Origin: a virus
Lineage: Duplodnaviria; Caudoviricetes
Virus record (IMG/VR): IMGVR_UViG_3300025585_000055
Span: 1 to 52,904 of that record
Strand: one strand, 5' to 3'
Length of the DNA stretch: 52,904 bases
Made by a program: the position numbers and the translations under genes. The notes beneath the pieces were generated by a model. That model did no database searches, was not told the origin of the DNA, and saw only the letters and a program-made list of their open reading frames with translations. Shown one piece after another: positions 9,653-14,376 of the stretch (the stretch's first letter is position 1; every line of letters begins with the position of its first letter).

Positions 9653-9852
9653 TCGTGGCAAAAACCGTCTTTGACGTGCTGGAAGAAAAACTTCTCTTGG
9701 CTCAGCGAGACCAAGAAGCGTTTGTAATGTCTGGAGGGGCAAAAACCTTCGAGGCATACAGAGAAGCGTGCGGGATGATTCGAGGTCTAACCCGTGCCAG
9801 ACAGGAAGTACAAGACCTTGCGAAAAACTTTATGGACCAAGAAGATGACTGA
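9649..9852 (+). CDS. Small hypothetical protein (67 aa)
   Basis: Translationally coupled between the portal and the GroES-like gene. Confidence 0.7.
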   Translation: MIVAKTVFDVLEEKLLLAQRDQEAFVMSGGAKTFEAYREACGMIRGLTRARQEVQDLAKNFMDQEDD

Positions 9853-10267
9853 AAAAACCGCAGCGATGAAAGAGTTGGAACTGCAGCGACGCAAGAAGAT
9901 AGAGCAAGAGGAGAAAGAAAAAGCCGCCCTTGAGGCAGCGATCCCCAAACCCACCGGGTACCACGTTCTCATTGCACTACCGAACGTCGAAGAGACTTTC
10001 GGCGAGTCGATGCTGTTGAAAGCGGAAAAGACGGTGCGCGAGGAGTACATCCTTTCTACCATCGGGCTGGTTCTCGACATGGGGGATCAAGCCTACAAAG
10101 ACAAAGAGCGGTTCTCTGAAGGCCCGTGGTGTAAGCCGGGGGACTACGTGATGTTCCGAGCCAATACGGGGACGAGATTCAAGATTGGTACGCAGGAGTA
10201 CCGGTTGATGAACGACGACTCCATCCAAGCAATTGTGCCAAACCCGAGAGCCATCTCTCGTGCATGA
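9845..10267 (+). CDS. groES: GroES/Cpn10-like co-chaperonin
   Basis: PKPTGYHVLI, GLVLDMG, KPGDYVMF and EYRLMNDDSIQAIV follow the GroES pattern. Start set to ATG 9845. Confidence 0.8.
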   Translation: MTEKTAAMKELELQRRKKIEQEEKEKAALEAAIPKPTGYHVLIALPNVEETFGESMLLKAEKTVREEYILSTIGLVLDMGDQAYKDKERFSEGPWCKPGDYVMFRANTGTRFKIGTQEYRLMNDDSIQAIVPNPRAISRA

Positions 10268-10277
10268 GGAATAAACC

Positions 10278-11327
10278 ATGGCGATGCAACAAGTTGAGTT
10301 TGAGTTTCCGGACCCCGATAAGAAAGCCGCGGCGGTTGTGGAGATAGAACAAGAGGAAGAAGACCTGCGGATCGAGGTAGAAGATGCCGTCGGTAGAGAA
10401 ACCATTGGTAAGAAGAAAAAGACACTGAAGGTGGATGATGTCGAGATCGAGGTTGTTGACGACACGCCGCCGGCTGATCGAAACAAAAAACCCTCCGCTC
10501 CGCCGGATGAAGTAACCGACGAAGAGCTGGAAAACTACTCCGACAAGGTCAAGAAGCGCCTGCAGCACTTCAGCAAGGGCTACCACGACGAGCGCCGTGC
10601 CAAAGAACAGGCTCTGCGTGAGCGCGAAGAACTTGAGCGGTACGCCAAAACTCTTATTGAAGAGAACCAGAAGCTCAAAGGTTCAGTGGATAAGGGCCAC
10701 AACGCGCTGTTGGAGTCCGCCAAAAAGCAGGTTCAGATCGAGCTGCAGGCCGCCAAGCAGAAGTACAAGGAAGCGTACGAGGCGGGTGATACGGACGCCA
10801 TCATCGCGGCACAAGAGGGCTTGAACAACGCGCAGATTCGCTTGGACAAGGTGAATAACCTGAAACCACGAGCGGATCAACAGGATACGGAGACTTTACA
10901 ATCTCAACCTGTTAATGTACAACAGCAAAAAGCACCTACTCAGCCCGCCCAACCTCCGCGGGATTTGAAGGCAGAGGCTTGGAGAAACGACAATCCGTGG
11001 TTTGGCAGTGACGACGAGATGACTGCGGCGGCACTTGGCTACCATAGCAAACTGGTTAAAGAGGGTGTAAACCCTCAGTCAGACGAATACTACGAGAAAG
11101 TAAATTCTCGTATGCGACAGTTGTTCCCAGAGAACTTCGATGAAGATGTTGATGATGCACCGGAGCCCAAGAAAGTAAAGAAAGCGTCAACTGTGGTGGC
11201 ACCCGCTACGCGGAGCACTGGCCCTATCAAGGTCAAATTAAGCGAAACACAGATTGCGCTTGCTAAACGAATGGGAGTATCCCTTGCAGACTACGCCAAA
11301 CAGGTTGCGCTATTGAGGAGATCATAA
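10278..11327 (+). CDS. Putative capsid scaffolding protein
   Basis: Acidic N-terminus, long coiled coil, NPWFG motif; located upstream of the capsid genes. Confidence 0.7.
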   Translation: MAMQQVEFEFPDPDKKAAAVVEIEQEEEDLRIEVEDAVGRETIGKKKKTLKVDDVEIEVVDDTPPADRNKKPSAPPDEVTDEELENYSDKVKKRLQHFSKGYHDERRAKEQALREREELERYAKTLIEENQKLKGSVDKGHNALLESAKKQVQIELQAAKQKYKEAYEAGDTDAIIAAQEGLNNAQIRLDKVNNLKPRADQQDTETLQSQPVNVQQQKAPTQPAQPPRDLKAEAWRNDNPWFGSDDEMTAAALGYHSKLVKEGVNPQSDEYYEKVNSRMRQLFPENFDEDVDDAPEPKKVKKASTVVAPATRSTGPIKVKLSETQIALAKRMGVSLADYAKQVALLRRS

Positions 11328-11773
11328 TGGCCGATAACAGACTAGACCGAGAACTGGAAAAACGCGAGCGCACCCCGCGCAAGCAAGCATGGCGCCGCCC
11401 AGAAGTGCTGCCCACTCCGAATCCGGAGCCCGGGTATTCGTTTCATTGGGTCCGCGTAAGTACCAGAGGCCAAGCTGATGCGATCAATGTATCTTCTAAG
11501 CTACGTGAAGGTTGGGAACCCGTGCGCGCAGTAGACCACCCTGAGATTTTCCTGAGCAGCATCGAAAACGAGCGGTTCAAGGACAATATCGTGATTGGTG
11601 GCTTGCTGCTGTGTAAAGCGCCAACTGAGCTGGTCAAGGAACGTAATGACTATTACGCCCACCAGAACCGCTCACAGATGGTCGCTGTGGACAACAACCT
11701 TATGCGAGAAAACGACCCGAGGATGCCTCTCTTCAACGAGAGAAAGACCACGGTTACTTTTGGTAAAGGTTAA
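11327..11773 (+). CDS. Conserved head-module hypothetical protein (148 aa)
   Basis: GAGGAG RBS; coupled to the scaffold gene. Confidence 0.75.
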   Translation: MADNRLDRELEKRERTPRKQAWRRPEVLPTPNPEPGYSFHWVRVSTRGQADAINVSSKLREGWEPVRAVDHPEIFLSSIENERFKDNIVIGGLLLCKAPTELVKERNDYYAHQNRSQMVAVDNNLMRENDPRMPLFNERKTTVTFGKG

Positions 11774-11787
11774 TTTAGGAGTTAATC

Positions 11788-12399
11788 ATGGCTACAACTG
11801 CCGCACCGTACGGGCTTCGTCCCGTTAAGCGCGTAGATGGGATGCCCTACGCAGGGGCCTACTCTACGTTCCTGATTGACCCGGCTGGCTACAACACCAA
11901 CATCTTCTACGGAAGCGTGGTGTACATCAATGCCAACGGGTACGTCAACATTGTCACCGGTACCGGTGCTGATGCAACTACCAACGACTGGCCGACTGGT
12001 TCCACTAGCGCGACAGGTGCTCTCGGCGTATTCGTCGGCTGCAGCTACATCAACGCTCAGGGCCAGCTGATTTTCAGCCAGTACTACCCCTCCGGCACCA
12101 CCGGTGTGGTACAAGCGTTTGTCGTGGATGACCCCATGGTTCTGTTCGCAGCCCAGCTCGATGGTACTGCTACACAGGCCGCCATTGGCGCCAACACGTT
12201 CTTCGCTGCAGCACAAAGCACTTCTACCGGCAGCACTCGTACAGGCAATTCAACCAGTGCGCTTGACGCAACGGTTGTCACTGTGCCCGCTGCGCTGCGT
12301 ATTGTGGCCTTCGTGTCCCCCGTGTCAGATGCGTTCCCGGACGTTCTGGTTAAAATCAACCCCGGTTTCCACAGCATGTCTGTGAACACTGGCATTTAA
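11788..12399 (+). CDS. Putative head decoration/cement protein
   Basis: APYGLRPV start, beta-rich, immediately before the major capsid gene; strong RBS. Confidence 0.6.
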   Translation: MATTAAPYGLRPVKRVDGMPYAGAYSTFLIDPAGYNTNIFYGSVVYINANGYVNIVTGTGADATTNDWPTGSTSATGALGVFVGCSYINAQGQLIFSQYYPSGTTGVVQAFVVDDPMVLFAAQLDGTATQAAIGANTFFAAAQSTSTGSTRTGNSTSALDATVVTVPAALRIVAFVSPVSDAFPDVLVKINPGFHSMSVNTGI

Positions 12400-12412: not shown

Positions 12413-13327
12413 ATGGCTATTTCACGCGCCCAGCTACTGAAAGAACTCCTGCCGGGGCTTAACGCTCTGTTTGGCATGGAATACGCTCGCTACGGCGAGG
12501 AGCACGCGGAGATTTTCGAGACCGAAAGCTCTGAGCGTTCCTTCGAAGAAGAAACCAAGCTGTCTGGCTTTGGTGCCGCCCCGGTTAAAAACGAAGGCGC
12601 TGCCATTGCGTACGACAACGCACAAGAAGCGTTCACCGCACGCTACACTCACGAAACCATTGCAATGGGCTTCTCCATCACTGAAGAAGCTGTGGAAGAC
12701 AACCTGTATGACAGTCTGTCTACCCGCTACACCAAAGCACTGGCTCGTGCCATGGCGTACACCAAGCAGGTCAAGGCCGCTGCCGTTTTGAACAATGCGT
12801 TCGCCGGCTCTGGTGTGACTTACGGTGACGGTAAAACTCTGTGCGCCACTGACCACCCGCTGGTCTCCGGTGGCACCAACAGCAACACTCCGGCAACTCC
12901 TGCTGACCTGAACGAGACTTCTCTTGAAGCCGCCATCATTCAGATCGCCGCATGGACTGACGAACGTGGCCTGCTGATTGCCGCTAAGGCCCGTAAGCTG
13001 GTTGTGCCTCCGTCGCTGCAGTTCGTAGCAACTCGTTTGCTCGAAACTGAACTGCGCCCGGCAACCGCGGACAACGACATCAACGCTATGCGCTCCATGG
13101 GTAGTATCCCCGGCGGTCACACCGTCAACAACTACCTGACGGACAACAACGCATGGTTCCTGATGACTGACGTTCCGAACGGCCTGAAGCACTTCGTCCG
13201 CACCCCGATGCAGACATCCATGGACGCCGATTTTGACACTGGCAACGCCCGTTACAAGGCACGCGAGCGTTACAGCTTTGGTGTTTCTGACCCGCTTGGT
13301 ATCTTCGGCTCGCCCGGCGCTGCCTAA
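12413..13327 (+). CDS. Major capsid protein (HK97 fold, Mu gpT-like)
   Basis: 304 aa, MAISRAQLLKELLPGLNALFG start, LVVPPSL motif, TAAGGAG RBS, biased codons, followed by a terminator. Confidence 0.9.
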   Translation: MAISRAQLLKELLPGLNALFGMEYARYGEEHAEIFETESSERSFEEETKLSGFGAAPVKNEGAAIAYDNAQEAFTARYTHETIAMGFSITEEAVEDNLYDSLSTRYTKALARAMAYTKQVKAAAVLNNAFAGSGVTYGDGKTLCATDHPLVSGGTNSNTPATPADLNETSLEAAIIQIAAWTDERGLLIAAKARKLVVPPSLQFVATRLLETELRPATADNDINAMRSMGSIPGGHTVNNYLTDNNAWFLMTDVPNGLKHFVRTPMQTSMDADFDTGNARYKARERYSFGVSDPLGIFGSPGAA

Positions 13328-13330
13328 GCA

Positions 13331-13343
13331 AATCAACGACTTA
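13331..13343 (+). promoter_or_regulatory. IHF-consensus site AATCAACGACTTA
   Basis: Exact match to WATCAANNNNTTR, about 45 bp upstream of a -35 element. Confidence 0.45.
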
Positions 13344-13353
13344 CGTCGTTACG

Positions 13354-13383
13354 AAAGGGCCCTTCGGGGCCCTTTTTGTTTTT
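13354..13383 (+). terminator. Rho-independent terminator AAAGGGCCC-TTCG-GGGCCCTTTTTGTTTTT
   Basis: GC stem, UUCG loop and U tract after the capsid stop. Confidence 0.9.
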
Positions 13384-13386
13384 GCG

Positions 13387-13415
13387 TTGACACCATACTG
13401 CGCACCTGCTACAAA
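13387..13415 (+). promoter_or_regulatory. Putative sigma70 promoter TTGACA-N17-TACAAA (extended -10 TG)
   Basis: Perfect -35 immediately after the terminator, with a 17 bp spacer. Confidence 0.55.
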
Positions 13416-13421
13416 GAGGCA

Positions 13422-13500
13422 TCCCCGGACACATTACGCGCTGCAGACCGACCGGGCGGACGACATGCAGACTGAAGCGCACTACTCGCATGTGAGGATT
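13422..13500 (+). ncRNA. Candidate structured cis-regulatory RNA leader
   Basis: Four complementary segment pairs, two in pseudoknot topology; the last abuts the GAGGA RBS of 13506. Confidence 0.5.
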
Positions 13501-13505
13501 TTAAA

Positions 13506-14225
13506 ATGGCTGGCACTCATTATTCAGGCCCGTTACTCTATTCTGGCGCAAACACAAACCCCTACTTTGCCGGTATGGGCGAGATGCCCATCGGCATCAA
13601 CCTCGCCGTTTTTACTGTGGCTGACGACTTTACCAGCGTAGCTATCGACAGCACCAATGACTGGACTGTCGTGAAAGACTCCGGTGCTTCTGTTGCTATC
13701 GTGGCTGACACTGTTGGTGGCGAGGTTGCTCTGACATCTGCCGCAACAACTGACGATGACGGCGCCTCAATCCAAGGCAATGAAGTGTTCTCTGTTGACG
13801 CAAACAGCAGCGTTTTCTTCTCCACCCGCATCAAGTGCAACGACGCTGACCAGACCGACATCTGTGTGGGCCTGACTGTAAACTTCGCTACCAACCCGGA
13901 AGCCATGCTGACTGCAGCTGACCGCATCGTGTTTCAGGTAGACGATGGCAACGCCTCTATCCTGTGCAAAACAGAGAAGGATGGCACTGAGACTTCCACA
14001 GACTCCGGCGTTGATCTGGCCGATAACACCTACGTGGTTCTGTCTTTCCGTGTCGATGGTACTGGCAGTGTGACTTTCTACGTCAACGGCAAAGTGGTTG
14101 CTCAGCACACCACCAACATCCCTGACGATGAGAACCTGACCGTAGCAGCCATGAGCCTTTCAGGCTCCGCTTCTGGCACCCGCGCTACAACCCTCGACTA
14201 CATCATGGCGGCGCAAACTCGCTAA
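13506..14225 (+). CDS. Putative virion protein, beta-sandwich/lectin-like (239 aa)
   Basis: Beta-rich; VTFYVNG resembles ConA/LamG strands; located after the capsid gene. Confidence 0.6.
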   Translation: MAGTHYSGPLLYSGANTNPYFAGMGEMPIGINLAVFTVADDFTSVAIDSTNDWTVVKDSGASVAIVADTVGGEVALTSAATTDDDGASIQGNEVFSVDANSSVFFSTRIKCNDADQTDICVGLTVNFATNPEAMLTAADRIVFQVDDGNASILCKTEKDGTETSTDSGVDLADNTYVVLSFRVDGTGSVTFYVNGKVVAQHTTNIPDDENLTVAAMSLSGSASGTRATTLDYIMAAQTR

Positions 14226-14235
14226 GGGGTGACCT

Positions 14236-14376
14236 ATGACTGAGGTCAAAACTGAAAAACCCAAGAAGTCGACCAAAAAGGTCACGCAAGAGCAGCAAGC
14301 TGCACCGGTGGAGCTCCCGCCGGTTGGCTCTGCAGCTCGAAAAGCAATGGTTATGCAAGGTCTGATTAAGGAGTAA
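14236..14376 (+). CDS. Small basic hypothetical protein (46 aa)
   Basis: Translated by hand; AAGGGGT RBS; fills the gap. Confidence 0.6.
   Translation: MTEVKTEKPKKSTKKVTQEQQAAPVELPPVGSAARKAMVMQGLIKE

Follow-up and report, generated by a model that had tools for sequence, protein, structure and literature searches.

In the alpha-operon pseudoknot at the ribosome-binding site (RBS) (the S4 operator, Alpha_RBS) and in the rpsO/S15 operator, the encoded protein locks the mRNA leader and restrains initiation. The SAM-II, preQ1-II/III, guanidine-III and NAD+-II riboswitches are compact pseudoknots that place their 3' strand at or in the Shine-Dalgarno (SD) sequence and have no separate expression platform. 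In the leader of T4 gene 32, a simple H-type pseudoknot lies far upstream of the RBS and nucleates cooperative protein binding in autogenous control. HDV-like ribozymes, with the strand order P1-P2-P3-P3'-P1'-P4-P4'-P2', and xrRNAs, whose fold takes in their own 5' end, are small RNAs with two nested or interleaved pseudoknots. Structured leaders that combine much covariation with an invariant core have often turned out to be sensors or catalysts.

The leader analysed here occupies positions 13421-13505 on the + strand of a 52,904-nucleotide phage sequence from IMG/VR (IMGVR_UViG_3300025585_000055; this whole stretch is referred to as the window), between the major capsid gene and the gene downstream of it. 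Like the alpha-operon and rpsO operators, it is a multi-helix pseudoknotted leader at an RBS and is specific to one operon; unlike them, it has no Rfam match, its helices follow another order and its gene encodes a phage virion protein rather than a ribosomal protein. With the SAM-II, preQ1-II/III, guanidine-III and NAD+-II riboswitches it shares its compactness, a final helix strand (D') at or in the SD and invariant unpaired bases beside covarying helices, but the models of these riboswitches do not match it, it comprises four helices and two interleaved pseudoknots, and its gene has no metabolic link. The T4 gene 32 leader is likewise a phage mRNA leader with a pseudoknot near the 5' end that serves a single gene, whereas here a four-helix knot adjoins the SD of a structural gene. 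Helix A would draw the 5' end into the knot, as happens in an xrRNA. In contrast to the HDV-like fold, the 5' strand pairs into the loop of a 3-bp hairpin, and it is the 3' tail, not a hairpin, that completes the last helix; the SD-linked frame of this leader is absent from both HDV-like ribozymes and xrRNAs.

Fremin et al. 2023 (PMC10690425) reported 10,006 candidate structured RNAs of IMG/VR viruses, with which this leader shares its IMG/VR source and the placement of a covarying motif within 25 nt upstream of a phage gene. The text available for that study mentions the T4 gene 32 leader pseudoknot and names motifs upstream of GP20, GP32, terminase, resolvase, Podovirus_gp16, RusA, major capsid protein and methyltransferase; in that text none is named upstream of a decoration or cement gene, and an unnamed entry among the candidates could still correspond to the present leader. 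A full-text search of the literature returned no description of the motif, and the supplementary tables of PMC10690425, which lay outside that search, could list it. On xrRNAs, the text available for PMC12397905 mentions no phage or bacterial example.

The upstream neighbour of the leader is the gene of the major capsid protein (304 aa; 12413-13327, +), which matches the PHROG major head protein family and, by blastn, the annotated capsid genes of cultured phages; 600 relatives of this protein were found in IMG/VR. An antisense open frame of 300 aa (12434-13336, -) covers nearly the whole capsid gene and is probably a by-product of the codon usage of that gene. An intrinsic terminator, consisting of a 10-bp GC-rich hairpin and a T run, was located 3' of the capsid gene by a terminator scan (13353-13384, +), and equivalent hairpins followed by T runs were seen 5' of most of the 85 leaders that were aligned. 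The sequence then reads as a sigma-70-type promoter (13387-13415, +), with TTGACA at 13387-13392, a 17-nt spacer and TACAAA at 13410-13415, which was overlooked by the promoter scan because its -10 element ends in A. Across the 85 leaders, a TAtAaa box occurs at -15 to -10 relative to helix A, TTG at -38 to -36 (in 44-66 leaders) and A at position -3 (in 64 leaders), 6-7 nt after the -10 box. From this conserved layout, the transcript is predicted to start 2-3 nt before helix A, probably at about 13421-13422 (+), and the -10 spacing and the A at -3 are consistent with the start at about 13422 that an earlier note on this DNA had proposed. The public RNA libraries covering the region (19 runs) consist of contigs; the four that were examined show neither transcript ends nor levels, and for this reason a gap at 13362-13509 in one metatranscriptome was not counted as evidence.

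All four helices (A, B, C and D) drawn in the earlier note were found in place when the sequence was re-read; all positions that follow are on the + strand. Helix A joins CCCGG at 13424-13428 to a segment of the hairpin C loop, 13452-13456, and so makes pseudoknot 1. Helix B pairs GCGCTGCAG (13438-13446) with CTGAAGCGC (13472-13480) and has eight of its nine pairs in the window, the single exception being a G.A at 13443/13475. Both helices, as well as helix D, are supported by covariation. A single invariant A at 13447 (A in 84 of 85 rows) separates helix B from hairpin C (13448-13459), in which CCG pairs with CGG (13448-13450/13457-13459); the outer pairs of this hairpin are invariant (85/85), and its loop consists of an A followed by CCGGG (13451-13456), the latter being the 3' strand of helix A. 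The next junction, ACG at 13460-13462, has an invariant AC (A in 84/85 rows, C in 85/85) and leads into the 5' strand of helix D, ACATGC (13463-13468), whose pairing with 13488-13493 forms pseudoknot 2. Helix D is separated from the 3' strand of helix B by AGA at 13469-13471, with an invariant GA (G in 85/85 rows, A in 84/85), and the B strand is followed by a variable linker (13481-13487; 5-18 nt, median 7, in the 85 leaders). The 3' strand of helix D, GCATGT (13488-13493), immediately adjoins the SD, which reads GAGGA at 13494-13498, and the ATG of the downstream gene (13506-14225) stands at 13506, 7 nt past GAGGA.

Relatives were gathered through the capsid protein and through the downstream protein, with 80 IMG/VR loci each, and in the leaders ahead of the downstream-gene homologues compensatory changes were seen by eye in all four helices. 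When 34 leaders were aligned with MAFFT, which takes no account of structure, 87.9% of the cells paired, compared with 77.8% in shuffles, and 16 of the 22 pairs changed on both sides. Two further alignments were used so that each set of helices was judged on an alignment that had not been fitted to it. The first of these (A2; 86 rows, one of which was a spurious weak match) was produced with a covariance model built from helices B and C only; on it the unmodelled helices A and D were paired in 78% and approximately 91% of cells, respectively, and all 11 of their pairs (5/5 in A and 6/6 in D) showed changes on both sides. The second (A3, 85 rows) came from a covariance model built from A and D only, and there the unmodelled helices B and C were paired in 95.9% and 100% of cells, respectively, with both-side changes in all eight counted pairs of helix B. 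On the same alignment, helix A was paired in 95.0% and helix D in 96.1% of cells. Over the whole structure on A3, 96.3% of pair cells were standard and compensatory changes were present in 20 of the 22 pairs, with 390 cells changed on both sides compared with 93 in shuffles. When the partners were slid by 1-3 columns as a control, pairing was 20-34%.

Structure-blind mutual information placed 14 of the proposed pairs within the top 25, the remaining ones being nine neighbouring-codon pairs in the gene and two clade-tied pairs in the leader. The middle pair of hairpin C takes four types (AU 32, CG 28, UA 18 and GC 7), and the G.A at 13443/13475 is a clade feature found in 21 of the 85 rows, a standard pair standing there in 57. 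The RNA was assigned to the + strand because G.U cells outnumber A.C cells (38 and 16, respectively) and because the promoter and the SD frame lie on that strand. Judged by this covariation, the leader fold is a real, widely conserved structured RNA, and the earlier note's picture of a compact, double-pseudoknotted leader running from the predicted transcript start to the RBS is upheld by the leaders of relatives far beyond chance.

Read from 5' to 3', the consensus begins with helix A (5 bp), a linker of 6-11 nt, helix B (9 bp) and the invariant A. Hairpin C follows as C-N-G/C-N-G, with a loop made of one base and the helix A partner, which runs straight into the 3' strand of C. After it come the invariant AC with one further base, helix D (6 bp), N-GA with an invariant GA and the 3' strand of B, and the 3' end is made up of the linker of 5-18 nt, the 3' strand of D and purine-AGG. 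The strand order is A-B-C-A'-C'-D-B'-D', i.e. two interleaved H-type pseudoknots (A with C, and B with D), in which stem B encloses the 3-bp hairpin C and a 12-nt strand with D in its middle. The five invariant unpaired junction bases (A / AC / GA), together with the two invariant pairs of hairpin C, suggest a specific tertiary site.

In the model alignment, at least 81 of the 85 rows read purine-A-G-G immediately after the final column of D', the distance from D' to the ATG is held at 9-14 nt, and the order of terminator, -10 box, A at -3, knot, SD and ATG is conserved across the 85 leaders. The SD is adjacent to the knot but unpaired in most leaders of this type (hereafter type 1), including that of the window. 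In L057, L055, L053 and L080, as read by eye, and also in phage HTVC027P, D' is the SD itself (CCUCA/UGAGG).

Several other arrangements of the region were considered and rejected. A leader peptide starting at the ATG in helix D (13465) would be out of frame with the gene, and this ATG is lost in variants in which D is UUGCAC, UAGUAG, GUAUAG or CCUCA. A type-1 fold that extends into the coding region was dismissed, as the top 45 mutual-information pairs contain no leader-coding column pair and codons 4, 8 and 9 vary freely at their third position while their first two positions are fixed; because of this codon pattern, the N-terminal arm of the protein is taken to be conserved at the protein level. 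A competing hairpin between helix A and a downstream CCGG, considered as a general switch, reaches at least 5 bp in 31 of the 85 rows, all of them with CCGGG or UCGGG as helix A; it is confined to clades whose helix A is palindromic, and the clade of the window lacks it. The C/U-G/A correlation behind a small hairpin, CUC[D']GAG, over the SD follows a clade in which helix D is changed as well. The 85 aligned leaders revealed no competing structure that is conserved, and with the A/CCGG hairpin limited to certain clades and the CTC/GAG pairing confounded with clade, a classic two-state switch is not supported.

In nested MFE folding, the window leader gave -15.5 kcal/mol compared with a shuffle mean of -20.8 (z = +1.71), and 197 of 200 shuffles folded at least as well. 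The MFE program does not model pseudoknots and its nested fold is not the proposed structure; single-sequence energy was therefore rejected as a test. When the proposed helices were scored as two nested halves, B plus C gave -11.6 kcal/mol and A plus D gave -12.6 kcal/mol.

The 1.4 kb around the leader was then compared with Rfam 15 (4227 models), a set that includes hammerhead, twister, twister-sister, pistol, hatchet, HDV-like, glmS, the curated riboswitches and Alpha_RBS. At E up to 10, no match fell on 13421-13505, and the only matches in that 1.4 kb were three at chance level, with 16.6 and 11.1 bits at 13334-13390 (the capsid terminator) and 14.9 bits inside the downstream gene. In seven diverse relatives searched at E up to 1, two sub-threshold matches were returned, both 5' of the motif and none on it. 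This covariance-model search of the window and seven relatives agrees with the earlier reading by eye, which had matched the leader to no hammerhead, pistol, twister or known riboswitch consensus. By blastn, the 100-nt leader matched nothing in the phage collection; the copies in HTVC023P and DSL-LC04 were found by the covariance model and missed by blastn. By these searches the leader matches no RNA family described so far and is a new architecture of a known kind, the structured cis-acting mRNA leader.

The element is common. One copy was found in the window by the covariance model, and in a search of 100 sources it was present in all 85 type-1 relatives and in none of the 15 sources with the sister (type-2) leader. 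Among the capsid-relative loci, 54 of 80 carry it 3' of the capsid gene, and exactly one copy was found in each of five whole phage genomes (four complete IMG/VR genomes and HTVC023P). The exact pattern for one subtype occurs in at least 120 IMG/VR contigs and in 10 MAG contigs; among the matches listed, 121 of the 129 pattern-selected loci have a capsid homologue 5' on the same strand, and seven of the other eight have no room for one upstream. Of the cultured phages, Pelagibacter phage HTVC023P carries the motif ahead of gp41 (52.9 bits), the freshwater phage DSL-LC04 carries it ahead of an annotated cement protein (27.5 bits) and HTVC027P has a divergent copy ahead of gp62, a weak match (8.5 bits) with all helices readable by eye. 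The type-1 motif was not found in Pag-Yong1 by the model search of cultured phages, and Roseobacter phage CRP-902 has the sister leader. Presence of the element in a cultured Pelagibacter (SAR11) phage, HTVC023P, makes bench testing possible. The 10 MAG matches lie on short contigs in bins of unrelated phyla and were rejected as host evidence. The contigs concerned (L162-L171) were binned under Nitrosomonadales, Crocinitomicaceae, Chloroflexota, Armatimonadetes, Polaromonas, Rhodoferax and others, and are probably phage contigs swept into MAG bins.

Twenty-six capsid relatives are without type 1, and in 23 of them the type-2 leader stands ahead of homologous genes; of the other three, L059 was assigned to type 2 by eye, L002 is without downstream sequence and L060 has neither type. 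Examples are found at L012:3467-3533 and L294:3754-3820 (Roseobacter phage CRP-902) and at 29 other loci, and it is present, too, among relatives of the gene that lies downstream in the window. The type-2 core agrees with that of type 1 in order and in invariant junction bases (B, A, C...C', AC-N, D, NGA, B'). The type-2 leader is shorter and has no helix A, and thus no 5' pseudoknot, carrying instead a long hairpin C in which 6 of 7 pairs are compensated. The 3' strand of type-2 helix B is the SD (CCUG/CAGG), which is 100% paired, and CUUG and CAAGG occur together, in the same five rows and in no others. The 3' strand of type-2 helix D consists of the AUG and codon 2 (UAGCCA/UGGCUA) and is 94% paired, three rows switching from G-C to C-G together with an Ala-to-Gly codon. 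Helices B and D of type 2 are nearly invariant, with few and possibly clade-linked changes, so that their support is thinner than in type 1. Set side by side, the two alignments give a coherent picture in which one core would be placed against the RBS (type 1) or over it (type 2, as well as L057, L055, L053, L080 and HTVC027P).

The putatively regulated gene (13506-14225, +) encodes a protein of 239 aa. Its Pfam matches to SO2946-like_C (31.3 bits) and Laminin_G_3 (27.7 bits) are just over threshold and are accompanied by a weak PhiKZ capsid-decoration match; searches for a PHROG family and for a sequence relative of solved structure returned none. In the AF2 model (mean pLDDT 63.6), residues 1-51 are unstructured and are followed by a beta-sandwich, i.e. 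a concanavalin-like (lectin-like) body behind an arm of approximately 50 residues, for which the Foldseek matches are lectins and glucanases. The positional counterpart of the protein is annotated as 'cement protein' in DSL-LC04 and as 'minor capsid protein' in Pag-Yong1. The downstream proteins were listed for all 85 aligned leaders and for the 129 pattern-selected loci, and no metabolic or transport gene theme was found among them; the characterised ones are few, and those are virion-surface or cement-type proteins. Proteins after the motif are 57-248 aa long and mostly do not match each other, and all begin M-A-x-T-x-F-S-G-P-V, an N-terminal arm with no obvious RNA-binding character. The product of 13506-14225 is a capsid-surface decoration or cement-type protein whose anchoring arm is conserved and whose bodies are exchangeable. 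It had been placed on the tail side in the earlier note, an assignment that the Pfam matches and the annotations of the positional counterparts replace with the capsid surface.

Across the window and loci L001-L290, the decoration-type proteins share only their first 10-16 residues and their bodies are unrelated, some of them being built of short G-x-V-T-G-like repeats. One RNA-library contig tracks the window leader to 13498 and then enters a different gene start. A recombination joint seems to lie just inside the gene. Downstream, an ORF of 46 aa with its own start (14236-14376) occupies the space from the decoration gene to the following ORF (14380). The decoration gene is not followed by a terminator, so that the leader stands at the head of a longer operon.

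With slightly better than even confidence, we favour the reading that the leader represents a new RNA class and serves as a translational operator specific to its gene, acting on the decoration/cement-type mRNA. This mRNA would be transcribed from its own sigma-70-type promoter just 3' of the capsid terminator. The 5' end of the transcript (helix A) would pair into the loop of hairpin C, and D, within the 12-nt strand, would pair with the 3' tail right up to the SD. The knot, once formed and probably locked by a trans-acting factor, would hold the RBS against or inside the structure and restrict 30S loading, so that we infer folded to mean off; in addition, the helix close to the 5' end probably protects the mRNA against 5'-end-dependent decay. 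The preferred trigger would be a phage protein in an assembly-coupled feedback of the autogenous type, exerted by unassembled decoration or capsid protein, and the alternative trigger would be a small ligand.

The operator reading is favoured by the fixed frame from promoter to ATG, by the overlap with the RBS in natural variants and by the SD and AUG pairing of type 2. Its gene specificity is indicated by the single copy per genome, always ahead of a protein that has the same N-terminal arm while the bodies differ. Control by a protein is favoured because a single copy sits on a structural gene without a metabolic theme, because the leader and the N-terminal arm, the one part of the protein that is conserved, go together, which is suggestive, and because the logic is like that of the alpha and rpsO pseudoknotted operators. 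Of the translational switch gating a tail-side operon that the earlier note had envisaged, the gate survives in its anatomy, i.e. a single-copy element whose helix D adjoins or is the SD and whose type-2 form pairs both SD and AUG, and the tail-side operon does not. Against the operator reading, the SD adjoins the knot unpaired in most type-1 leaders, the window included, and if the product is a stoichiometric capsid component, a structure that limits translation seems counter-intuitive.

Since no competing fold was found, the main rival to the operator is a constitutive leader, with a small-molecule riboswitch next. In the constitutive case, the buried 5' end would stabilise the mRNA and the structure would set or boost the translation of a highly expressed virion gene, with no sensor and no trans factor. 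We regard this as unlikely, though worth keeping in view: both leader types begin their structure approximately 3 nt from the predicted start of transcription, most type-1 leaders leave the SD unpaired, a conserved alternative fold was not found, and the element works across phages of different hosts (Pelagibacter phage HTVC023P and freshwater phage DSL-LC04). However, a plain 5' hairpin would suffice for stability, a need that the five invariant junction bases and the four-helix knot exceed, and the burial of the SD and/or the AUG in type 2 and in some type-1 variants is a misfit with an enhancer. The same junction bases are what a riboswitch of a new small-molecule or ion class would use, with A/AC/GA as the ligand pocket and with binding that locks B and D and occludes the RBS. 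The aptamer-like anatomy (compact, pseudoknotted, with invariant unpaired junction bases and with helices that only covary) speaks for such a riboswitch, as does an output helix that overlaps or adjoins the RBS in the manner of pseudoknot-type translational riboswitches, and a universal ligand would fit the wide host range. We nevertheless consider it improbable, since the gene it would regulate encodes a capsid-surface protein with no metabolic link to suggest a ligand, each genome has a single copy, confined to one structural gene, and the known riboswitch models are unmatched.

A self-cleaving ribozyme that processes the 5' leader appears very improbable. It would be in keeping with a small double-pseudoknotted RNA that has a highly conserved core, as in several ribozyme classes, but the ribozyme families of Rfam 15 left the window leader unmatched at E up to 10, and the strand order A-B-C-A'-C'-D-B'-D' differs from the HDV-like order. 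Self-cleaving ribozymes are typically scattered and multi-copy, whereas this element occurs once per genome in a fixed promoter-to-SD frame and, having its own promoter, does not need to be excised from a longer RNA. The location immediately after a promoter that heads approximately 27 kb of same-strand genes would also suit a put-type transcription element, in which the nascent RNA modifies RNA polymerase at the head of a long structural operon. To this we assign a slimmer chance still, as the terminator scan of 13.4-33 kb found no + strand terminator as strong as that of the capsid gene, the total of 25 sites lies close to the shuffle mean of 19.5, and the tight SD/AUG register and the RBS pairing of type 2 point to translation.

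Beyond the translational operator itself, a broader proposal is that the leader is a sensor RNA of a new class, an aptamer for a ligand or protein that has the knotted A/AC/GA junction as its scaffold and would couple capsid-surface protein synthesis to a cell signal or to capsid assembly in abundant aquatic podophages. We put this forward tentatively and as a possibility that is rather doubtful at present. If the sensor reading is true, a virion structural gene would for the first time have riboswitch-like control of its own, and nature would have built the core of this control in two architectures. The two natural versions of the core, one adjoining the SD and the other burying SD and AUG, offer a ready comparison for work on the mechanism, and a swappable capsid-surface protein under such a leader belongs to a part of phage biology with little known gene regulation. 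The motif and the N-terminal arm mark the start of a hypervariable decoration-gene cassette and can therefore serve as an annotation aid for this phage group.

Two observations concern the surroundings of the leader. Upstream of the capsid gene, the cultured relatives L291-L295 keep a gene order of a GroES-like co-chaperonin, a protein of approximately 300-350 aa and two proteins of approximately 150-200 aa, and the window counterparts of these pre-capsid genes (approximately 9794-12399) match PHROGs of unknown function. Between terminator and promoter, several relatives have a gap of 680-1280 nt compared with the usual approximately 100-220 nt, with an insertion point that corresponds to approximately 13385 in the window. 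The insert L007:3457-3984 has no Pfam match, L082:1632-2405 is a free-standing homing endonuclease gene of the HNH type and L100:407-1363 is a free-standing homing endonuclease gene with GIY-YIG and NUMOD3 domains.
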